NCBI GenBank assembly: GCA_964507055.1
Contig: CAZDOJ010000001.1
Coordinates: 206,793-270,792 of the forward strand
DNA from: an uncultured Gammaproteobacteria bacterium
Lineage (GTDB): Bacteria; Patescibacteriota; Microgenomatia; Levybacterales; UBA12049
Direction of reading: 5' to 3'
DNA: 64,000 nucleotides
Shown here: in pieces, positions 3,261 through 42,177 of the stretch
Position numbering within the stretch: the stretch's first letter is position 1
Layout of the letters: the number at the start of each line of letters is the position of its first letter
Notes under the pieces: model-generated
What the model was told of the DNA's origin: nothing
What the model saw: only the letters and a program-made list of their open reading frames with translations
Databases searched by the model: none
Made by a program: the position numbers and the translations under genes

Positions 3261-4148
3261 TTATAATGTCTTATTAGGACCGTCCGTATCATTTTTTCCC
3301 GCCCAATCAATATCAAGTTTATCAAGATCTACCGGTTCAACTAAATCCGGCACACTATATAAATATCCCATTCCCCAAACTTTTTCGCTATCATTTGTTA
3401 TAGTTGATGATTTACCTGCAAATTCTTCTGTTGTTTGGTTTTCCTGAATTTTTCTAACTTTCTCTGCTGCTGTATCTATCACTTCTGTACTTTGTGGTTG
3501 GTCTTTTTGAATGGCTTCCTCTAATTGGAAATATTCGTTTGTGCGAATTGGAAGTTTTCCATCATTAGCCCCATGCCGTATATCAAAGAATTTTGTACGG
3601 CGTCCTGAGAGCATTGTTCTGAATGTTGCAAAGGCAATTTCATCGATATCTATACCTCTTCCCTCGATACGTCTTTCGTTTGCGATTGCAATTTCCCTTG
3701 CTAATCGTGCGTCTTCTTCTGCAATTAATGTAAGAAGTGGATCTGCTTTCCCTTCATATTTTTCTTGTTCCCTAAAACTCACTAGAGTAACGCCATCCTC
3801 TTGGTCGCTTCTTCCCGTTTTTTCTCTTGCATCCAATTCTCTTTTTCTCTCACTCGTCAGTGCAAATTCTGCCATTCCAGCACCTGATTTGGCAAAATCA
3901 ATTTGATGTGGAACTGCCTCAAATGCGTTGGGTAAAATAATCTTCCCATGAAAAGAATGTCGTTGCATTCCATCCTCATCTCTCGTGTGAAGCTCTAGCC
4001 CTCCTATTGTTCCCTCCGGGAGAATAACAAACTTACCAGGTACTTGTTGTGCTTGTACAGCTGATGCTCCATCTAATCGGCTTTTGAAACCCATAGCATC
4101 ACGTCCTGATTTCACAAATTCTTCAAATTTATTCATAATAGTTGACAA
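3261..4148 (-). CDS. hypothetical protein, paralog 1 of a trio with a conserved C-terminal peptide (...DIDWAGKNDTDGPNKTL)
   Basis: 295-aa ORF with no signal peptide or TM. Shares an internal core with the 5383-6618 product (LP.G..GLEL / ..PHQI....KSG[AS]GMA / R[RK]...RGI.[IV]DE). The acidic Trp-containing tail is shared with both downstream paralogs. Confidence 0.6.
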   Translation of the reverse strand: MSTIMNKFEEFVKSGRDAMGFKSRLDGASAVQAQQVPGKFVILPEGTIGGLELHTRDEDGMQRHSFHGKIILPNAFEAVPHQIDFAKSGAGMAEFALTSERKRELDAREKTGRSDQEDGVTLVSFREQEKYEGKADPLLTLIAEEDARLAREIAIANERRIEGRGIDIDEIAFATFRTMLSGRRTKFFDIRHGANDGKLPIRTNEYFQLEEAIQKDQPQSTEVIDTAAEKVRKIQENQTTEEFAGKSSTITNDSEKVWGMGYLYSVPDLVEPVDLDKLDIDWAGKNDTDGPNKTL

Positions 4149-29993: not shown

Positions 29994-30061
29994 AGCGGTA
30001 TTGCTTATTATACTCCATTCTTTTCTTGACTTGCCTGAGCTTATTTCATACTATTAGACTA

Positions 30062-31801
30062 ATGCCTGATTTACCCAATAATCCGCCTGCTATAGATAAT
30101 TCCGGTGAAGGTGGAAGTCTCATTGATGTACTCCGTGCTGATGGATCAATAACTGATGATCAATATGAATCAATAAAAGTTAAATCCGTTACTGATGGTC
30201 AATCTGATGTCGATATCCTCCGTTCGATGAATATCGTCTCTGATGCAAAAATTGCCGAGACACAAGCACAAGTTTTGGGAATTCCATATATCTCTCTTTC
30301 CACAGTTTCATTTTCTCCACAAGCATTGAGTTTGCTTCCTCGAGCTGTTGTTGAACGCTTTTCTTTGATTCCCTTTATGTATGAAGAAAAGGAAAAAACT
30401 CTTTCTATCGCAATGGCCAATCCAATTGATCTTGATGCCTTGGCATTCGTCCGTCAAAAGACAGGACTTACTATTAAATCATTTGCTGCAGATCCCCAAG
30501 AAGTAGCAGATGCTATCGATCAGCAATATTCGCAAGAGCTTGTCGGTGAAGTGGGTGAAGCGATCAAAGAGACTGAAGAATTTACCCAGCAACGCACAGT
30601 CGACAGCAAACAAATTGCACAGATTATTCAGGAAGCTCCAATTGCTAAGATCGTTTCAACCATTTTGGAATATGCAGTAAATAGTCGTTCTTCTGATGTT
30701 CACATTGAACCGCTCGAAGATAAAGTTCGCGTACGCTATAGAATAGATGGTATTTTGTATGATAAGTTAAGTTTGCCAAGAAATGTACATGATGCGTTGA
30801 CTTCACGTATCAAGATCCTTTCCGCTCTCAAAATTGACGAACATAGAGTCCCGCAGGATGGACGATTTAATTTCAAAATTGATTCTCAAGAAGTTGATAT
30901 CCGTGTTTCTATCCTCCCAACCGTTCGTGGAGAAAAAATTGCTATGCGTTTGCTCCATAAAAGCGGAGGCATCCCTACCCTACAGGATTTGGGACTCAAT
31001 GGGATCGCATTAAAAGTGCTTGAAACAGCGGTCCTGAGGCCTCATGGGATTATCCTGGTTTGTGGTCCGACCGGTTCTGGAAAGACGACGACTTTATATG
31101 CTGTACTTTCCCGATTGAATACGACAAGAGTAAATATCGCGTCTCTCGAAGACCCTGTCGAATATGAAATTCCAGGTGTGAATCAAGTTCAGATTAATCC
31201 GGCTGTTGGTTTGACATTTGCATCAGGTCTTCGTTCTTTCCTCCGACAAGATCCAAATATCATTCTCGTGGGAGAAATTCGTGATAAAGAAACAACAGAT
31301 TTAGCTATCCAGGCTGCATTAACAGGCCATTTGGTTTTCTCTACGCTGCATACATCAAAAGCATCTGGTGCTCTTCCACGTTTGGTCGACTTGGGTGCTG
31401 AGAGTTTTCTTCTCGCTTCCACTGTGAATGCAATTGTCGGCCAACGTATCGTCCGAAGAATTTGTCCACACTGTAAAGAATCATTCGATCCACCAGCACA
31501 ACTCGTTGAAGAGATGAAAGCAGCATTAGGAAATCTTTTTCCCGCAGGTCAGGTCAAACTTTACAAAGGTAAAGGCTGCAGTGAATGTGGTGATCTTGGA
31601 TACATCGGACGTATCGGTATCTATGAAGTGATGGCAGCTTCTGAGTCGATCTCTCGTTTGATGCTTGAGCGGACGGATGAAGCAACAATTGAAAAGCAAG
31701 CAGTCAGCGAAGGAATGATTACAATGAAACAAGATGGCTATCTCAAAGCATTACAAGGTGAAACGACGATCGAAGAAGTCTTGCGTGTCGCTCAAGAATA
31801 A
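30062..31801 (+). CDS. pilB: type IV pilus assembly ATPase PilB (GspE family)
   Basis: Walker A GPTGSGKTTT, Asp/His boxes, C-terminal tetra-Cys Zn motif CPHCKES...CSECGDLGY, N-terminal GspE_N-like domain. The ATG at 30062 is preferred over the TTG at 30026. Confidence 0.9.
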   Translation: MPDLPNNPPAIDNSGEGGSLIDVLRADGSITDDQYESIKVKSVTDGQSDVDILRSMNIVSDAKIAETQAQVLGIPYISLSTVSFSPQALSLLPRAVVERFSLIPFMYEEKEKTLSIAMANPIDLDALAFVRQKTGLTIKSFAADPQEVADAIDQQYSQELVGEVGEAIKETEEFTQQRTVDSKQIAQIIQEAPIAKIVSTILEYAVNSRSSDVHIEPLEDKVRVRYRIDGILYDKLSLPRNVHDALTSRIKILSALKIDEHRVPQDGRFNFKIDSQEVDIRVSILPTVRGEKIAMRLLHKSGGIPTLQDLGLNGIALKVLETAVLRPHGIILVCGPTGSGKTTTLYAVLSRLNTTRVNIASLEDPVEYEIPGVNQVQINPAVGLTFASGLRSFLRQDPNIILVGEIRDKETTDLAIQAALTGHLVFSTLHTSKASGALPRLVDLGAESFLLASTVNAIVGQRIVRRICPHCKESFDPPAQLVEEMKAALGNLFPAGQVKLYKGKGCSECGDLGYIGRIGIYEVMAASESISRLMLERTDEATIEKQAVSEGMITMKQDGYLKALQGETTIEEVLRVAQE

Positions 31802-31820
31802 ACTACTATTTAACTAGACC

Positions 31821-32888
31821 ATGGATATTCAGGAATTACTTACACTCACAATTAAGAACAAGGCATCCGATTTGCATTTGCTTGTTGGGTTGCCTCCGAC
31901 GTTTCGTATCGACGGTGCGTTGCGTTATCTGACGACATATCCCGCATTAAAGCCTGATGATCTTGAAACAATGATCTTTTCTCTTTTGACACCAGAGCAA
32001 AAGGAGATATTACTCTCCAATAAAGAATTAGACTTCTCCTTCGGTTATAAGGGCAAAACTGCAACAGATGTCGGACGTTTCCGTATTAATGCATACTTCC
32101 AAAAGGGTTCATTGTCAGCAGCTTTTCGTTTCCTTGCTCCTGGTGTTCGTACGTTGGAAGATCTTGGTTTGCCAAAGGTCGTTCATGACTTTGCCAAAAT
32201 GAAACAAGGTATGGTACTTGTAACCGGTCCAACAGGTCATGGAAAGTCGAGTACACTTGCTGCAATTATTAATGAAATTAACGTCAACAAATCTTGTCAC
32301 ATCCTGACAATTGAAGATCCTATCGAGTATGTCTATCCAAAGGGTAATAGTATTATCTCCCAGCGTGAAATGGGAATTGATACGCATTCTTGGGCACTTG
32401 CCCTTCGTTCATCGCTTCGTGAAGATCCAGACGTTGTGCTTATCGGAGAAATGCGTGATCCAGAAACAATGCAAGCCGCTATTACACTTGCTGAAACAGG
32501 CCATTTGGTTCTTTCGACATTACATACCAATTCAGCAGCACAAAGTATTGATCGTATCGTCGATGCTTTTTCGGCTGATCAACGCTCTCAAATCCGAATT
32601 CAACTTGCAGCGACACTTAAAGGAATCGTTTCTCAGCGTTTGATCCCAAAGATTGGTGGCGGTCGTGTCCCAGCAGTTGAAGTTCTTTTGGGGACGCCAG
32701 CTGTTTCAGCAAATATCCGGGATGGGAAATCTCATTTGATAGATTCAGTCATTCAGACTTCAAAAGACTTGGGTATGATTACTATTGATGAATCATTGGC
32801 CCAACTTGTAAAGAACGGTATTGTTACTATGGATGACGCGAAGGCATATGCTTTGCGTGAAACTGAATTGGCACGATTAGCCGGTTAA
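31821..32888 (+). CDS. pilT: twitching-motility retraction ATPase PilT
   Basis: Walker A GPTGHGKSST, shorter PilT/PilU-type N-terminus (ASDLHLLVG), His/Asp boxes; 355 aa without a Zn finger. Confidence 0.9.
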   Translation: MDIQELLTLTIKNKASDLHLLVGLPPTFRIDGALRYLTTYPALKPDDLETMIFSLLTPEQKEILLSNKELDFSFGYKGKTATDVGRFRINAYFQKGSLSAAFRFLAPGVRTLEDLGLPKVVHDFAKMKQGMVLVTGPTGHGKSSTLAAIINEINVNKSCHILTIEDPIEYVYPKGNSIISQREMGIDTHSWALALRSSLREDPDVVLIGEMRDPETMQAAITLAETGHLVLSTLHTNSAAQSIDRIVDAFSADQRSQIRIQLAATLKGIVSQRLIPKIGGGRVPAVEVLLGTPAVSANIRDGKSHLIDSVIQTSKDLGMITIDESLAQLVKNGIVTMDDAKAYALRETELARLAG

Positions 32889-32899
32889 ACAGAATATGT

Positions 32900-34105
32900 A
32901 TGAGACTTTATTACAGAGCAGTAACGCAAGACGGTAAGACAATTCGCGGCCTTATTGAAGCACGTGATATTAAAGAAGCTGCAACGTATCTGCGCAAGCA
33001 CCAACTTGTCCCAGTCAAAATTATCCCTGAAACCAAAACTGGTGTTGCAAAATATTTCCCTTTTTTGAGTAGAACCTCATCGAATGATCTGGTCTTTTTT
33101 ACGAGGCAGCTTTCTTCGATGATTACTTCTGGATTGACACTTATTCAGGCTTTAACCATTTTGAAAAATCAAATGCAAAGCTCTGCAATGACTGAGATTG
33201 TCCAAGCCATTATCTCTGATGTAGAAGATGGAAAGAATTTATCACATGCTTTATCGAAGCATCCACATACATTTTCTCCAATTTATATTGCATTGATCAA
33301 AACTGCTGAATCTTCAGGTCTTTTGGATAAAGTATTGCAACGGTTGGCTGATAATTTAGAAAAAGAACAGCGTTTACAACGAACTATTCGCGGTGCCCTT
33401 CTCTATCCGGTCATTATTTTAATTATGATGTTTGTTGTGACTATTGTGATGATGATTTTCGTTGTGCCACAACTCACAACTATGTATACCAATCTTAATC
33501 TCGAACTTCCAATCACAACACTTATCGTTATCGCGATGTCTGATTTTATTACCAATTATTGGTATATTGTGCTCACGATTATTGCGGCTTCAGCTTATGG
33601 TTTGCATAACTGGTATAAAAAGCCTGCGGGTCGAAAAACGGTTGATGGATATATGCTCAAAACTCCCGTCTTTGGTAAGCTGATGAGTCAAAGCATGATG
33701 GCAGAATTCACACGGACACTTTCTCTTCTTATTACATCAGGGTCGTTAGTTGTGGAATCTCTAAATAAAAGTGCAGACGTGGTCACCAATGTTTTATATA
33801 AAGATGCAATCAATCTTGTCGCCAAACGAGTTGAAAAAGGTATTGATATCGGTGATGCTATGGAAGCGAGTCCACTTTTCCCTCCAATGGTTATCGAAAT
33901 GGTCAAGATTGGCGAACAGACTGGTAAATTGGATGATTCATTGCTCAAAGCTTCAGAGTATTTTGAACGTGAAGTTGAAGAGTCTGTAAAAGTTATGACC
34001 ACACTGCTTGAACCAATTATCATGATTATTCTTGCTTTGGGTGTAGGGTTCTTGATTATTGCGATCATCACTCCGATCTACAATCTTATTTCTTCAATTA
34101 GTTAG
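32900..34105 (+). CDS. pilC: type IV pilus inner-membrane platform protein PilC (GspF family)
   Basis: Duplicated T2SF domain (conserved L..GLTLIQAL and L..G..L..SL segments), three TM helices; 401 aa. Confidence 0.9.
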   Translation: MRLYYRAVTQDGKTIRGLIEARDIKEAATYLRKHQLVPVKIIPETKTGVAKYFPFLSRTSSNDLVFFTRQLSSMITSGLTLIQALTILKNQMQSSAMTEIVQAIISDVEDGKNLSHALSKHPHTFSPIYIALIKTAESSGLLDKVLQRLADNLEKEQRLQRTIRGALLYPVIILIMMFVVTIVMMIFVVPQLTTMYTNLNLELPITTLIVIAMSDFITNYWYIVLTIIAASAYGLHNWYKKPAGRKTVDGYMLKTPVFGKLMSQSMMAEFTRTLSLLITSGSLVVESLNKSADVVTNVLYKDAINLVAKRVEKGIDIGDAMEASPLFPPMVIEMVKIGEQTGKLDDSLLKASEYFEREVEESVKVMTTLLEPIIMIILALGVGFLIIAIITPIYNLISSIS

Positions 34106-34487
34106 CAGGTTGCGTTTCTGAGAGGTATTTTTTAACCTGTTCAATAAGGTCTGCAGGTGTAATATCAGCCTTGATTAAAAATGCGGTAGCTCCTTTTTTC
34201 AACGCGTCTTGTACAAGCGGTTCGTGGTCGAGATTGGTAAGCATGAGAATTGGTCCATTAGGAACAGGTGGCGGGGTTGCCTTGAGTGCATCCATAACAC
34301 CGAGACCATCAATCTTTGGCATCATTATATCCAGAAGGATCATGTCGTAACCGCCTTTGAGGAGTTTATCGAGAGCTTCTTGTCCGTTCACAGCAGTATC
34401 GACATCAAATCCCTCAGTCTTGAGGACTTCTTCGTAGAGCTCCCGGATATACAAATCGTCATCAATAACGATAACTTTTTTTGCCAT
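34098..34487 (-). CDS. stand-alone response-regulator receiver domain (CheY-like)
   Basis: DD...D phospho-acceptor pattern (VIVIDDD ... ILLDIMMPKIDG ... K in LIKAD). No output domain. The internal ATG (MAKKVIV) is preferred. Confidence 0.8.
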   Translation of the reverse strand: MAKKVIVIDDDLYIRELYEEVLKTEGFDVDTAVNGQEALDKLLKGGYDMILLDIMMPKIDGLGVMDALKATPPPVPNGPILMLTNLDHEPLVQDALKKGATAFLIKADITPADLIEQVKKYLSETQPAN

Positions 34488-34632
34488 GTCAACCTGATTA
34501 TCAGGAAATCTGACATTAAAGTCAATAGGACAGTTAAAACGCACAGTTTTGAGGCTACTAATTCTAAGTCAATGTGTAGCGATGAGGTATATTGGTAATT
34601 CTTTTAACATGGTATACTTTACTGTATTTATG

Positions 34633-37261: not shown

Positions 37262-37374
37262 ATTTTATTTGATTAAAATCTTTGTGAGAAATAGTATTTA
37301 TTACATCTGTAAGATACTGTTAAACAAGAACCCGCTCAATGTGTAACGGTGAGGTAATGTCTCAGAATTTTCAT

Positions 37375-37662
37375 TTATGTTATCGGTATATATAAACCGT
37401 AATAAGAGCTTTCATTTCTTTTTGGAAGCCCAAGTCTTATTCTATGTGCTGCCAAACTATTAATAAGCTCGCGTATTCTGTTTTGTCCTTTACTAATATA
37501 GATGTCATCAATATATTCATATCCCCTACTTGGAGATGTTTTCGGGCTTAATGTAGTATCAAAAATCATATTCGTGTGAATATACATATCGAACATTAGC
37601 ATTGTACTTTGGGTATTTGGGCTTTTCATTGACAGGTGAGTCAATGCTCTTTCTGAGTGCAT
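37375..37662 (-). CDS. small protein, paralog A of a three-member family (IFDTTLSP...RGYEYIDDIY...IRLGLPKRNESSYYGLYIP)
   Basis: Shares motifs with products 39100-39327 and 39345-39575. The true start is likely an internal Met (~75-80 aa). Divergent from the HTH/GAF gene. Confidence 0.45.
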   Translation of the reverse strand: MHSERALTHLSMKSPNTQSTMLMFDMYIHTNMIFDTTLSPKTSPSRGYEYIDDIYISKGQNRIRELINSLAAHRIRLGLPKRNESSYYGLYIPIT

Positions 37663-37704
37663 AAATTAGAATCTAAGTTGTAAGCAGATTATCTGCTTGT
37701 TATA

Positions 37705-38535
37705 ATGCAAAAAATGAATCACTTAGCGTCTGCGTTAAAAGATTACTATACGAAAAGAGACGGTAAGATTATTTTTATAAATAACTGTTCTCTTAATAGA
37801 CTCGCGTTATTGATGTGGGAAGAGCTTCATTTTAGTCAGATCGATGCGAGTGTCCTTTCCAAAGTAATTAACGGCAAAAGACTCTTTACAAATACACAGC
37901 TTGAGGCATTTTGCAAAGTATTAGATATCCCTTCAAAAGAAAAATCTTATTTGTTTTATTGCCTAAATCAAGATTATTGTGATCGATACAATATTTCTTT
38001 GGATGATTACTTCTTATCTAAGGATTCTGTTTTGGAGCTTTTGAGGAAATGTTTGAATGAAATGGTTCAGACGAAACCTATTTTTGATACCCAATTGCCG
38101 CAAATAATTGAATCATTTACGAAGAATATTACTGACACATCTATGAATAGTGTCTATGAAAAAAATGTTTTTGAAGTTCTTGGAACATCGTTATTCTTTA
38201 AGGCGAAACGATTAATTAATTTTAAGCACGGCTCGTTATATATTGCTGATGATGGTACGCTTGCTCGTGTATATGCTTCATCGCCTGTTTTATATAAAGT
38301 CTTTCCAAGACAAACCGGAACTACGATGAGTGTATACAAGCAACAACGTACCTTTACTTTTCCAGCGGATTATATACTGAATTTCCATCCTGAATTAAAT
38401 CAATTATCTATTGGCTCGGATTTGGTGATACCACTTATATACAAACAGAAGACATTTGGAGTTCTTTCGATGCTGTCGGATAAAGATACTACATTTACCA
38501 AAAAGGACATCACTACTCTACAAAATTATCTTTAG
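37705..38535 (+). CDS. putative regulator with weak HTH-like N-terminus and GAF-like C-terminal domain
   Basis: N-terminal ...SVLSKVINGKRLFTNTQLEAFCKVLDI (XRE-like helix pattern, weak). C-terminal ...GSLYIADDGTLARVYASS...VIPLIYKQKTFGVLSM (GAF-like). Confidence 0.35.
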   Translation: MQKMNHLASALKDYYTKRDGKIIFINNCSLNRLALLMWEELHFSQIDASVLSKVINGKRLFTNTQLEAFCKVLDIPSKEKSYLFYCLNQDYCDRYNISLDDYFLSKDSVLELLRKCLNEMVQTKPIFDTQLPQIIESFTKNITDTSMNSVYEKNVFEVLGTSLFFKAKRLINFKHGSLYIADDGTLARVYASSPVLYKVFPRQTGTTMSVYKQQRTFTFPADYILNFHPELNQLSIGSDLVIPLIYKQKTFGVLSMLSDKDTTFTKKDITTLQNYL

Positions 38536-38536
38536 T

Positions 38537-39103
38537 TTATTCTATGGACTCCGTAGCCAAACCTTTTTCCACAAGTTGTCGTATATAAACTGATTTTGGA
38601 AGATTTTTTTTCTTAGAGATGATATTAAGCTTATTTACCATCTCTGTCGGAAAAAGCACATTATACTTTTTATATTTCTGGATGGGATTACATACTAAAG
38701 CTTCCTTCAAAATCTTAAAAAGCGTTTCTTCAGTATATTCGTATATATAGATGTTTTTGTGTAGGTTCAATTGATCTGAAATTAAAACATCTGGTAAAGC
38801 ATCTTTTGATTTAAGCATAATAATCTCCTTTCCTTGTTGTATTGCATTGGATATCTCAAAACCAACATGTACGCTTGGAAATGTGCATTCTGCTATAACA
38901 ATATCGCACTTTCCTAATTTTTTATAAAAGGTATTAAAATATTCGTTTCTCTTCTCGGCTGTCCATGTAACAAGGGTGTTAGCTGTAACAGAAAGTGCAT
39001 GAGTCACAGTATGATCTGAAGATGTTAAAAAATCGATGATATGTGTTAATTCTTGTTTTCTTTGGACATCTATTTCAAGGGGTGCAAGAAAAGCAATTTT
39101 CAT
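38537..39103 (-). CDS. nucleoside 2-deoxyribosyltransferase-like (NDT/DNPH1/SLOG-like) domain fused to C-terminal ribbon-helix-helix DNA-binding domain
   Basis: N-terminal MKIAFLAPL...CDIVIAECTFPSVHVGFEISNA resembles the NDT/DNPH1 active-site D..G..FE.G.A pattern. C-terminal NVLFPTEMVNKLNIISKKKNLPKSVYIRQLVEKGL has an RHH (CopG-like) pattern. Overlaps upstream small paralog B by 4 nt. Confidence 0.45.
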   Translation of the reverse strand: MKIAFLAPLEIDVQRKQELTHIIDFLTSSDHTVTHALSVTANTLVTWTAEKRNEYFNTFYKKLGKCDIVIAECTFPSVHVGFEISNAIQQGKEIIMLKSKDALPDVLISDQLNLHKNIYIYEYTEETLFKILKEALVCNPIQKYKKYNVLFPTEMVNKLNIISKKKNLPKSVYIRQLVEKGLATESIE

Positions 39104-39327
39104 AAATTTGATTCCTTCATTGGGATATATAGTCCGTAGAATGAACTTTCATTTCTTTTCGGCATTCCTAGTCGGATTTCGTTTACTTCCAGAATTTGTA
39201 AAAATTCTCTTGAGCTGTGTCGTCGTTTATCAAGGTATATATCATCAACATATTCAAATCCCCTCTTTTGAGCAGTTGAAGGGCTCAATGTTGTATCAAA
39301 AATAGTATTTGTACTCAATATATTCAT
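39100..39327 (-). CDS. small protein, paralog B (75 aa)
   Basis: MNILSTNTIFDTTLSPSTAQKRGFEYVDDIYLDK...IRLGMPKRNESSFYGLYIP. Translationally coupled to the NDT-RHH gene. Confidence 0.5.
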   Translation of the reverse strand: MNILSTNTIFDTTLSPSTAQKRGFEYVDDIYLDKRRHSSREFLQILEVNEIRLGMPKRNESSFYGLYIPMKESNL

Positions 39328-39344
39328 CCTATTGGATTGTTATA

Positions 39345-39575
39345 TTATTTTTGTTTTGAGCAATACAAACCAAAATAATGTTTTGATGTTTTTTTCGGAG
39401 AACCTATTTTATATCCTTGAGTATTTGCGAATTCTAAAAGCTCTAGAAGTGTTTGGTATAAATTTGGAATATCTTCTATGTGCTGATAACCTTTTTTCAA
39501 TGCGTTTGAAGGAGTAAGCGATGCATCAATCACATCAAGTTCATTCTTTGCAATAATCTGTTCACAGAGACACAT
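39345..39575 (-). CDS. small protein, paralog C (76 aa, more divergent)
   Basis: Same motif order (..D.SLTPSNALKKGYQHIEDI....Y.IGSPKKTSKHYFGLY); sits between the XRE regulator and paralog B. Confidence 0.4.
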   Translation of the reverse strand: MCLCEQIIAKNELDVIDASLTPSNALKKGYQHIEDIPNLYQTLLELLEFANTQGYKIGSPKKTSKHYFGLYCSKQK

Positions 39576-39637
39576 ATCCTGTGAAATTTATATCAAAAGA
39601 ATTTATTTCTGTCAAGTATTTGATAACAAATAATTGA

Positions 39638-40438
39638 TTAAGATGAAAAAAGTTTCTCAGTATTCTTATCGGCAGGATGGTACATAACTAGTTGAAATCT
39701 AGGGTCATTTATAACCTTTGCTGTAGAGACGTGAAAGCTTAGTGTTTGATATTTACCATTATAAGTATCTTGCATCGTTTTATATTCATAATCAAATAGT
39801 TTTTTCCCATAGGTTTCTTGATTTACTTCTGGCCAGAGTTTTCTGAATTCCTCAAATTGCATCAAATCTTTAACCAGATTCTTGTACCATTTTTCATTTT
39901 GATATTGCTCATTTTCTCCTTTAAATGCGGCTATTTGTGCTATCGCAAATGATTTTAAACTATTTTGATCTTCACCTTTCTTAACAATTACAGAAAATTG
40001 TTCTTTAGGAAAAAAAGGAAATGATAAAAAGCTAGGCTTATTTTCGATGATCCATGATAATTGGTTTGGATTCATTTTTGCAGTAAAAAGAGTATGTTTA
40101 TTTGCATATAGCCATCGGAAGCTAAAATCCATTAAATAAGCCGGATATCTCCATGTATCAATTTTTTCTTTAGTTTCTTCTAAAATATTACTGATTTCTT
40201 GTTCTGTCGGTAAATATCCTCCAACGAGTAAAAAATGACCTTTTTCTTGATGTGTTAAATTTAAAGCATTGATAATTCTTTCGGCAGTATCTCTGTTGGG
40301 TTTTCCTACTCGTCCTTGCTCAATCTTTGAGAGACGGCTTGTGTCTTTCCAACCCAAACTTAGTGATAAATCAACTTGAGAAAGCCTTTTCCTTAGCCGA
40401 TAGTCTTTAATTAATCCTCCTAATGTTGCAGTCATCAT
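39638..40438 (-). CDS. XRE-family HTH transcriptional regulator with ~200-aa C-terminal domain
   Basis: N-terminal LGGLIKDYRLRKRLSQVDLSLSLGWKDTSRLSKIEQGRVGKP = canonical XRE helix-turn-helix; 266 aa. First gene of the minus-strand string XRE-C-B-NDT/RHH. Confidence 0.65.
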   Translation of the reverse strand: MMTATLGGLIKDYRLRKRLSQVDLSLSLGWKDTSRLSKIEQGRVGKPNRDTAERIINALNLTHQEKGHFLLVGGYLPTEQEISNILEETKEKIDTWRYPAYLMDFSFRWLYANKHTLFTAKMNPNQLSWIIENKPSFLSFPFFPKEQFSVIVKKGEDQNSLKSFAIAQIAAFKGENEQYQNEKWYKNLVKDLMQFEEFRKLWPEVNQETYGKKLFDYEYKTMQDTYNGKYQTLSFHVSTAKVINDPRFQLVMYHPADKNTEKLFSS

Positions 40439-40487
40439 ATAGCAGCATTATACCTTTTTATAGGTACAAGCACAAATTAAGTGTTTA

Positions 40488-41588
40488 TTGATATTTTTAA
40501 TGCTATTAAATTATACTTATATAGTTATGACAGATAGAGAACCACATGGAGTCGCTATTGAGGGACGGCATAGAATTAAAGAAACTCCAGGTATTGAAAT
40601 AGAAATAAATACAAGTAGTAGAGATCTTTCATTAGCTATTGCGAGTTCGACAATGCTTTTAAAAGAGGTATTTGCTGATGCAGATTCTCAGCTCCCGTGG
40701 CTAAAACAGAAAGAGAGCAATGACCAATTTAGTTCAGACGCCGATATAAAACTTCGGCATGTTCATGGATTGCTCGATGCATATAGTGCTATACACAAAA
40801 GAGATGCCCCCACAAAAAATAGGTTTACAAGTAACTGGGGAATGCATTCGGATTATCTTGAAGCAAGAATCAATCAAATTGACGCAAATGTGGAAGCACA
40901 ACAAGAGAAGCTTTATGAAGAATCTACTAATTGGACCACTCAAGATGAAAGAAAAGTGGTCCGCGATGCTCATAAATTTGCAGCAAATTTAACAAAGGAT
41001 CAAAAAGATATTCTTTATTCTTCAACAGGTTTGTCTCCCGAAAAGGTTAAAGAAAAATTAGGTCGTTGGGGAATTACGGTTGGTGCTAATGTTGCCTCAA
41101 CATATGCATTAGATGGAACTGCAGTCATCGCTGGGCTTGCTTTGACAAAAACAGGTATACAAGAACATGTTAGTACAGAAACACTTATCGGTTTCTTAGC
41201 TGCCAGTTATGGTGTTTGGTTTAAAGGATTATACGAGAACGTGAAAGAAAATTGGAAGCTATTAGAAGAGCAGGGAGTAAGTACGAGTGCTTTATCAAAA
41301 GCGTTCCATGACTATTCTAAGTCTAAAGGGTGGAGTGAACGCTCTCAAAGACTTGCAACGGCTGCCGGTTACGTAGGTTTAGAAATAGCGAAAGAACTTC
41401 CTTTTTATCTTGGAGCATTTGGATCAGCAACATTTTTTGAGGGGATTTCAGATAAGGATGCAATAACTTTCCTTGCAGGTGCGAATATTGGTGGAGGATT
41501 TTATGAGTATACACTTGCAAAAGGTACTAAAATGGCTCGCAAGTGGATGGGGCGAAGAACTCAAAAACCTGAAAGGCCTAGTCGTTAG
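40488..41588 (+). CDS. hypothetical protein with Gly/Ala-rich amphipathic C-terminal half
   Basis: Intact 366-aa ORF divergent from the XRE regulator; no motif recognised. C-terminal ~170 aa rich in G/A/small residues (WGITVGANVASTYALDGTAVIAGLALTKTG...). Start may be the internal MTDREPHG. Confidence 0.4.
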   Translation: MIFLMLLNYTYIVMTDREPHGVAIEGRHRIKETPGIEIEINTSSRDLSLAIASSTMLLKEVFADADSQLPWLKQKESNDQFSSDADIKLRHVHGLLDAYSAIHKRDAPTKNRFTSNWGMHSDYLEARINQIDANVEAQQEKLYEESTNWTTQDERKVVRDAHKFAANLTKDQKDILYSSTGLSPEKVKEKLGRWGITVGANVASTYALDGTAVIAGLALTKTGIQEHVSTETLIGFLAASYGVWFKGLYENVKENWKLLEEQGVSTSALSKAFHDYSKSKGWSERSQRLATAAGYVGLEIAKELPFYLGAFGSATFFEGISDKDAITFLAGANIGGGFYEYTLAKGTKMARKWMGRRTQKPERPSR

Positions 41589-41589
41589 C

Positions 41590-42177
41590 TTATGCGGCTT
41601 TATCTAATTCAATAAGATATTTTGAAATTATTCCTTCTTCAATGTATATCGCTTTAGTATCAGGATCTAATTGTTTAAATCCTTCAATTGTTCCTCTACA
41701 CATAGGGCTTCCACATTGACATTGGAGGCCTTCTGCTACTGGATCATATTCCATAGCTGCATAATCTACTGAAACTTCATCCCCTTTAGGCATATCTTTT
41801 CTTGCAACAACTTCAATTCTGCCCGTGGTCTCTCCTTCTTCTCTTTCAACAATACGAATATATGCAGTTGGATCACAAGAATGGTTGGTAAAATGCCCAA
41901 AACTTGGTGTACCATCAGGATTTTTTGGATCAAGATGCTCAGTTGGACCATATTGGAATGTATATACTGTTGGGTGGTCAAGTATTGGACCGGTGATTGT
42001 GAAGATAACATCGCCTTTATTGATGGGTTCTTTTGCAATAGTACCAAATTGGCCTTCAACCATATTACTCTTAACAACCGTGACAATACCATTATCAGGA
42101 AGCACTCTTTCGGGTGTTCTGCGTTGTTCAGTTAGCTGTGCTGGCTTAGCACTGATTCCTCTTTCAGTCATGAGCAA
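41590..42177 (-). CDS. SET-domain protein (putative lysine methyltransferase)
   Basis: SET signature FTNHSCDPT (NHSC), EVSVDY (ELxxDY-like), post-SET Cys cluster CQCGSPMCRG; 195 aa. Confidence 0.8.
   Translation of the reverse strand: MLMTERGISAKPAQLTEQRRTPERVLPDNGIVTVVKSNMVEGQFGTIAKEPINKGDVIFTITGPILDHPTVYTFQYGPTEHLDPKNPDGTPSFGHFTNHSCDPTAYIRIVEREEGETTGRIEVVARKDMPKGDEVSVDYAAMEYDPVAEGLQCQCGSPMCRGTIEGFKQLDPDTKAIYIEEGIISKYLIELDKAA

Follow-up and report, generated by a model that had tools for sequence, protein, structure and literature searches.

The window analyzed here is a 64,000-nucleotide (nt) stretch of contig CAZDOJ010000001.1, and our subject (the target) is a gene on its minus strand whose 188-amino-acid (aa) product joins an N-terminal domain of the DNPH1/nucleoside 2-deoxyribosyltransferase (NDT) type to a C-terminal ribbon-helix-helix (RHH) domain. 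This fusion is a large uncharacterized family, found so far only in Patescibacteria, and in the target the enzyme-derived domain may well serve as the sensor of a transcriptional regulator. An AAGGA sequence resembling a Shine-Dalgarno site lies 9 nt 5′ of the start codon, and both peptides quoted in the first-pass annotation of this DNA are present in the translation of the 188-aa open reading frame (ORF).

38537..39103, minus strand: target gene, 188 aa, DNPH1-like plus RHH protein; ATG start, stop codon at 38537-38539; called from the ORF, 23 full-length homologs, and 416 remote representatives
38693..39103, minus strand: N-terminal domain with the DNPH1/NDT fold, aa 1-137; placed by homology, fold, and residue mapping
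38555..38668, minus strand: C-terminal RHH, aa 146-183 (KYNVLFP strand, helices 153-166 and 170-187); placed by Pfam RHH_3, a CopG match, and modeled helices

The similarities of the target to NDT/DNPH1 and RHH proteins are real but individually weak, since matches from single-sequence searches are all subthreshold: Pfam Nuc_deoxyrib_tr (PF05014) on aa 47-101 (E = 0.038, 14.6 bits versus a gathering threshold of 28.8), PDB entries of DNPH1/Rcl on aa 63-97 (E = 0.003), Pfam RHH_3 on aa 147-179 (E = 0.009), and a RelB-like antitoxin model of NCBIfam on the tail (E = 0.078). Profiles and structure prediction are firmer. A profile of 123 relatives aligns with rat Rcl and human DNPH1 across about 135 residues (E = 1.4e-24 to 4e-20), and a profile of the C-terminal ~48 residues matches the CopG repressor (PDB 2cpg and 1b01; E = 5e-4), pairing KRLTITLSESVLENLEKMAREMGLSKS with the family's kRFtllLppelvayLdkvSkkkkipKS. 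An AlphaFold2 (AF2) monomer model, built on the alignment of the 24-member close subfamily that also served for profile construction and conservation counts, has a mean predicted local distance difference test score (pLDDT) of 80.8 and shows a Rossmann-like beta-alpha core with two helices C-terminal to it; the RHH strand is unstructured in this monomer, and the region 106-108 is of low confidence. Against this model, Foldseek ranks DNPH1 structures first (E ~ 1e-6, template-modeling [TM] score of the target 0.7 to 0.86). The target combines the flavodoxin-like alpha/beta fold with the segment D.[VI].AE...PS.G.G.E.G.A that marks the NDT/DNPH1 superfamily, and its tail has the RHH pattern of an alternating polar/hydrophobic strand (K146-Y-N-V-L-F-P), a helix, a tight turn with a Ser/Thr/Asn N-cap, and a second helix. 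Because family profiles, the AF2 and Foldseek results, and the CopG match agree, we regard the architecture as confirmed: the NDT/DNPH1-like domain and C-terminal RHH that the first-pass annotation had claimed are both borne out, the latter also by Pfam RHH models in relatives, and the fold comparison it had proposed recovered the flavodoxin-like NDT fold. Membership in the TIR/ThsB and SLOG/LOG families was considered and rejected, the NDT/DNPH1 matches being clearly stronger; TIR is not the best structural match, and no defense-system partners occur near the target gene.

Sequence searching returned 23 homologs at 39 to 74% identity, all with both halves, and the named ones among these 23 are all from Patescibacteria (Levybacteria or "Patescibacteria group"). 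When the profile of close homologs was scored against 1.84 billion representatives of 50% identity clusters, 1,248 proteins were recovered at E ≤ 1e-3 and at least 416 representatives at E ≤ 1e-10; the best 150 matches are, with few exceptions, 183 to 207 aa long and align across profile positions 1-185, that is, across both domains. In the 123 relatives examined with Pfam, Nuc_deoxyrib_tr is found in 93 (best E = 3e-11), RHH_3 in 18, and RHH_1 in 13. A scan of GTDB genomes with the close-subfamily alignment yielded three loci only, not enough to search for operators. Relatives were also sought in viral contigs, phage records, and plasmids, and none was found there, for which reason a phage or plasmid origin of the family was rejected. 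The first-pass annotation had supposed that the architecture was undescribed and had named a widespread annotated family as the outcome that would tell otherwise. Widespread the family is, with 416 representatives at E ≤ 1e-10, but annotated it is not: members are recorded as "hypothetical," as "RHH domain-containing," or under automatic enzyme names. We found no paper describing a DNPH1/NDT-RHH combination and only incidental co-mentions, in a body of searched literature that is incomplete, and domain databases may list the combination; with that limit, the supposition holds.

Three catalytic residues are conserved in DNPH1 and the NDTs (human numbering): Glu104 as the essential nucleophile, Asp80 as the proposed general acid/base, and Tyr24, which is hydrogen-bonded to the nucleophile (PMC10483697). 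The 5′-phosphate is contacted by the Ile29-Arg30-Gly31 and Gly100 backbone, by Ser98, and by Ser128′, and the enzyme is obligately dimeric, its active site being shared (PMC10483697). Mapped onto the target by profile alignment and column counts, these and neighboring positions read as follows.

DNPH1 Tyr24: target Ala4
DNPH1 Ser28: target Pro8
DNPH1 Gly31: target Ile11
DNPH1 Asp80: target Phe59 (ungapped profile alignment)
DNPH1 Ser98: target Ser77
DNPH1 Glu104: target Glu83

The target thus has the nucleophile Glu83 and is without the other two of the three catalytic residues, and its phosphate loop has changed from Ser28-Ile-Arg-Gly31 to Pro8-Leu-Glu-Ile11, with Ser77 kept; Ser128′ was given no counterpart, as the region 106-108 is of low confidence in the model. 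The two catalytic losses are common to the subfamily: none of its 24 members has Tyr or Phe at position 4, all have Phe or Tyr at position 59, and 22 keep Glu83 where the other 2 have Gln. The column of Asp80 is hydrophobic family-wide (Asp in 0/24 close relatives and 0/126 metagenome-locus members). The nucleophile itself is missing from many relatives, being kept in 84 of the 123 representatives and replaced in 39 (32%), and kept in 30 of the 126 full-length metagenome-locus members and replaced, mainly by Leu, Ile, or Val, in 96 (76%). Phosphate-contact positions fare better in the wide family (Ser8 in 85/123, Gly11 in 70/123, and Ser77 in 102/123). Conservation is highest in the RHH: the mean majority fraction is 0.84 for the RHH versus 0.64 for the N-terminal domain in the close set, and 0.53 versus 0.42 in the wide set. 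Near-invariant positions are Arg/Lys146, Asn/Thr148, and Arg175 in the RHH and Asp67, Glu72, Ser77, and Tyr123 in the N-terminal domain, whose best-conserved stretch is the pocket-forming segment aa 63-98 (0.75).

Because two of the three catalytic residues are missing, the target should not be annotated as a 2′-deoxynucleoside 5′-phosphate N-hydrolase or a deoxyribosyltransferase, contrary to the practice of some automatic pipelines. The nucleotide-modifying or -depleting activity that the first-pass annotation ascribed to the N-terminal domain is, for the same substitutions (Ala4, Phe59, and Pro8/Ile11) and given the replacements of the nucleophile across the family, doubtful. Catalytic decay, the retention of the pocket and of phosphate contacts in most members, and the constraint on the RHH together form the pattern that a pseudo-enzyme acting as the ligand-binding module of a transcription factor would show.

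The gene stands last in a presumed operon of three, downstream of two small ORFs and a candidate promoter, with a third copy of the small ORF on the other side of the target.

39100..39327, minus strand: 75-aa small ORF; its stop codon and the start codon of the target overlap (ATGA, 39100-39103); a gene call in public assemblies
39345..39575, minus strand: small ORF of 76 aa that is paralogous to the 75-aa ORF and opens the presumed operon; orthologs hold the same position in L001 and L010
37375..37662, minus strand: third small-ORF paralog, a gene call of 64 or 95 aa; the likely start at 37569 gives the shorter, 64-aa product
39587..39640, minus strand: candidate promoter/operator, read from the sequence (TTGACA at 39615-39610, 17-nt spacer, TATAAA at 39592-39587)

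The small ORFs belong to a novel family of ~65-aa modules with the pattern L.P..A..KGY.Y..DI...GYKLG.P....YGLY, for which Pfam, NCBIfam, PADLOC, and a fold library gave no match; the AF2 model of the 75-aa ORF (pLDDT 83) likewise has no fold match. In P0234 and in P0235, the module is duplicated in tandem within one polypeptide. Repeats in the region are mainly of this paralogous coding kind, along with chance inverted repeats, and a 194-nt direct repeat of 70% identity links the third copy with 39119-39312. The family adjoins the close subfamily of the target only and is absent from all 80 loci of the wider family, a collection of metagenome loci drawn with a clade-specific alignment and biased to one clade. 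The window, L001/L011, and L010 each have two small ORFs ahead of the DNPH1-RHH gene, and a single small ORF together with a 111-aa helix-turn-helix (HTH)-like gene is present in L004/L012. In L003, a 157-aa paralog (2352-2825) is an in-frame deletion of the RHH core that keeps ...QKFKKYNI and EKGLKNEL, with a full-length DNPH1-RHH copy 3 kb away. As a small ORF (2098-2355) still precedes this RHH-less paralog and overlaps its start, pairing with the small ORFs tracks the N-terminal domain and not the RHH.

The candidate promoter, situated between the XRE-type HTH gene and the 76-aa ORF, is preceded by a conserved element, TTATTTGTTATCAAATA, and is itself bracketed by the inverted repeat TATCAAA/TTTGATA. 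The intergenic string TTATTTGYTATCAAATAYTTGACAGA, which contains the -35 box, recurs upstream of the orthologous modules of L010 (about 3890-3950) and L003 (5735-5790), and TTATCAA/TTGATA(A) inverted arms flank it in both the window and L003, with a spacing of 23 versus 31 nt. A scan of 37300-40700 for sigma-70 promoters and terminators found no more sites than in shuffled sequence and missed TTGACA-N17-TATAAA through its rule for the -10 box.

Beyond the subfamily, two neighborhoods recur in the 80 metagenome loci. In the first, recR is followed by a family member (a recR cluster occurs in 23/80 loci); in the second, a family member is followed by a ~260-aa membrane-anchored protein, pilM, pilN, pilO, khpA, and rpsP (12 to 15 of 80). 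Two or more family paralogs are present in 37/80 loci, with up to six arranged head to tail in L039, L079, and L027. Such arrays of four to six DNPH1-RHH paralogs lie on other Patescibacteria contigs at

L039, 1179-3966
L079, 1746-5570
L027, 3215-7607
L060, 4322-7247

WWE3 members adjoin a gene for an HhH-GPD glycosylase and precede dehydrogenase, thioredoxin-reductase, and mnmA genes. In P0065 (401 aa, a single metagenomic gene call), two DNPH1-like domains flank an XRE-like HTH, which shares 45% identity with a 111-aa protein whose gene in L004 (5669-6004) lies between the small ORF and the DNPH1-RHH gene; this one gene call suggests that the N-terminal domain has also been combined with a second type of DNA-binding module.

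We assign a probability of roughly 0.55 to the reading that the target is a one-component RHH regulator in which a DNPH1-derived pseudo-enzyme domain senses a small, probably nucleoside- or nucleotide-like ligand and oligomerizes. The C-terminal RHH, of the CopG/Arc type, would bind DNA as a dimer, in the manner of RHH proteins, which pair their strands in an antiparallel two-stranded sheet and insert it into the major groove. The N-terminal domain would descend from a DNPH1-type nucleotide N-glycosidase and, as a pseudo-enzyme, would keep the fold, the pocket segment, and probably a DNPH1-like dimer contact, acting most likely as the small-molecule sensor and oligomerization module that tunes operator binding. 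Transcribed from the conserved candidate promoter TTGACA-N17-TATAAA as the last gene of the presumed operon (76-aa ORF, 75-aa ORF, regulator), the regulator would probably control its own synthesis, and the two small proteins would be likely partners of the N-terminal domain. Besides the residue and conservation patterns, we count in favor of this reading the chromosomal housekeeping context of the family (recR and pilMNO), the paralog arrays, the conservation of operon and promoter, and the HTH fusion of P0065.

Several points weigh on the other side. The target retains Glu83, Asp67, Glu72, and Ser77 and may therefore have a non-canonical activity. The RHH-less 157-aa derivative of L003 is still paired with a small ORF, which shows that the N-terminal domain can serve some function apart from DNA binding. 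A plain deoxynucleoside monophosphate is made less likely as the ligand of this subfamily by its degenerate phosphate loop. The 126-member metagenome set, from which the higher rate of nucleophile replacement derives, is biased to one clade and was retrieved with clade-specific patterns, and the operator at 39587-39640 is a guess from three loci.

If the pocket still turned over a substrate, the protein would instead be a bifunctional trigger enzyme, an active N-glycosidase or transferase working on some nucleotide or nucleoside through Glu83, with the RHH coupling occupancy to transcription as in PutA or PyrR. This is what the first-pass annotation had in mind, minus its TA-like cluster. The near-universal Glu83 of close relatives, kept together with Asp67, Glu72, and Ser77, is what such an enzyme would show, as are the well-conserved pocket segment and the joint retention of Tyr/Phe4, Ser8, Gly11, Ser77, and Glu83 in 26 of the 123 remote relatives. 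We nevertheless judge it unlikely: equivalents of Tyr24 and Asp80 are missing from the whole subfamily, and that of Asp80 from every relative examined; two close relatives have Gln in place of Glu83, and most remote ones a hydrophobic residue; and in rat DNPH1 the exchange of Tyr for Phe alone costs 280-fold in kcat/KM (PMC10483697).

Free decay of catalytic residues would suit a protein in which the DNPH1-derived domain is a mere dimer or tetramer scaffold, with no ligand, for a constitutive repressor or a protein of the nucleoid/segregation type. The obligate dimerization of DNPH1, with its shared active site (PMC10483697), fits this explanation, and paralog arrays could supply hetero-oligomers. 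However, phosphate-contact positions persist across the wide family even where the nucleophile has gone, Asp67, Glu72, and Tyr123 are conserved, and nowhere in the domain is conservation higher than in the pocket segment. Such a pattern suits a binding site better than a mere scaffold, and we hold the scaffold explanation to be improbable.

A toxin-antitoxin (TA) or defense module, in which a small ORF product or the NDT/TIR-like domain would be toxic (e.g., by depleting nucleotides or NAD+) and the RHH protein an autoregulating antitoxin, is very doubtful, for translational coupling of a small gene to the RHH protein, the pairing of small ORF and N-terminal domain in five loci (one with the RHH deleted), and weak ThsB/TIR and RelB-antitoxin matches are outweighed by the lack of any recognizable toxin, by small ORFs with no Pfam, NCBIfam, PADLOC, or fold match, by the absence of the pairing from all 80 wider-family loci, and by the absence of a mobile or defense context.

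The regulator reading, to which we return, finds its closest relative and its nearest analogies in different places. DNPH1/Rcl (PDB 2khz, 4fyh, and 8os9) is the closest homolog of the N-terminal domain (profile E = 1.4e-24 across ~135 aa, target TM ~0.8) and shares with it the ADxVxAE...PS.GVGYE motifs and the nucleophile Glu; unlike DNPH1, the target is devoid of Tyr24, Asp80, and the Ser-x-Arg-Gly loop and carries the extra C-terminal RHH, and many relatives have dispensed with the nucleophile as well. From the NDTs and the MilB/BcmB CMP N-glycosidases (PF05014), it is set apart by a score below the gathering threshold, by the loss of the catalytic Tyr and Asp, and by the DNA-binding fusion. 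CopG, Arc, and Mnt have the same strand-helix-helix arrangement (KRLTITL...L..MA...G.SKS in CopG versus KYNVLFP...L..IS...LPKS in the target), but theirs is a stand-alone ~45-aa or N-terminal module, whereas that of the target is C-terminal, behind a domain of 137 aa. NikR couples an RHH to a metal-sensing ACT-like domain, and PutA couples one to enzyme domains; in both, the attached oligomeric domain controls DNA binding by the RHH. By analogy the target would follow the same logic, but its sensor fold is unrelated, its RHH is at the opposite end (that of NikR and PutA is N-terminal), and the sequences are not related. Bacillus subtilis PurR and PyrR are enzyme folds of nucleotide metabolism reused as regulators, with catalysis lost in PurR. 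This recruitment is analogous to the one proposed here and not homologous, as it involves a phosphoribosyltransferase fold and other nucleic acid-binding domains.

What is new, on the best-supported view of these sequences, would be a kind of one-component regulator with an enzyme-derived sensor domain of the DNPH1 type. To our knowledge, the DNPH1/NDT superfamily is otherwise known as enzymes only, and it would gain an example of the transition from enzyme to sensor. Patescibacteria (the candidate phyla radiation) have very small genomes, few recognizable transcription factors, and no de novo nucleotide synthesis. A family of hundreds of clusters, often amplified in tandem beside pilus and recombination genes, is a candidate for the sensing by which these bacteria would regulate nucleotide salvage and DNA uptake. 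A bolder scenario, which we consider a long shot, makes DNPH1-RHH proteins Patescibacteria-specific nucleotide-sensing repressors whose paralogs, their pockets differently remodeled, would each respond to another (deoxy)nucleotide, nucleoside, or modified-base signal and would control DNA uptake and recombination (pilMNO/pilBTC and recR), with the 65-aa proteins as new co-regulators docking on the pseudo-enzyme domain; the interest of the family would rise if its paralog arrays did form such a nucleotide-sensing network. For the target gene itself the claim is more modest: a diverged member with two uncharacterized small partner genes.

Four further genes surround the module.

39638..40438, minus strand: 266-aa XRE-type HTH protein (Pfam HTH_31/HTH_3), directly upstream
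37705-38535, plus strand: 276 aa, weak HTH at the N-terminus and GAF domain at the C-terminus; convergent with the target, 1 nt between the stops
40488-41588, plus strand: 366-aa ORF that matches nothing in Pfam, NCBIfam, or PADLOC and is divergent from the XRE-HTH gene
41590-42177, minus strand: SET-domain protein (Pfam SET, E = 8e-12), encoded in this Patescibacteria-like genome and adjoining a gene for an ornithine/diaminopimelate decarboxylase

The order on the minus strand is therefore 266-aa XRE-type HTH gene, 76-aa ORF, 75-aa ORF, target. Homologs of the XRE-HTH protein are nearby in three of five subfamily loci (68% identity in L010 and 36% in L003), and its weak match to Csa5/Cas11 is regarded as noise caused by its HTH region. 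The gene for the 276-aa HTH and GAF protein is absent beside orthologs of the target in the loci of other species. Pfam, NCBIfam, and PADLOC assigned no toxin or defense family to seven neighboring window proteins, and relatives of the target sit beside recR and pilMNO, none on phages or plasmids, so the TA-like cluster in which the first-pass annotation placed the gene is unsupported.

Farther neighbors in the window are pilB, pilT, pilC, a response regulator, a GH1 glycosidase, a GT2 glycosyltransferase, the SET protein, the ornithine-decarboxylase-type enzyme, and a GAF histidine kinase. The block of pilB-pilT-pilC and response regulator lies 2.6 to 4 kb from the DNPH1-RHH module in three genomes (window 30026-34544, L001 10358-12538, and L003 9157-12527), with different genes in between: GH1/GT2 in the window, Tmk/HD/NUDIX/DUF1846 in L001, and a RimK-like gene in L003. 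PilC, PilT, and the response regulator are 93 to 97% identical to those of OZ246394.1 (L011), a 1.61-Mb chromosome labeled as an uncultured Gammaproteobacteria bacterium. This label is probably a taxonomic mislabel, as the chromosome shares a family otherwise present only in Patescibacteria.
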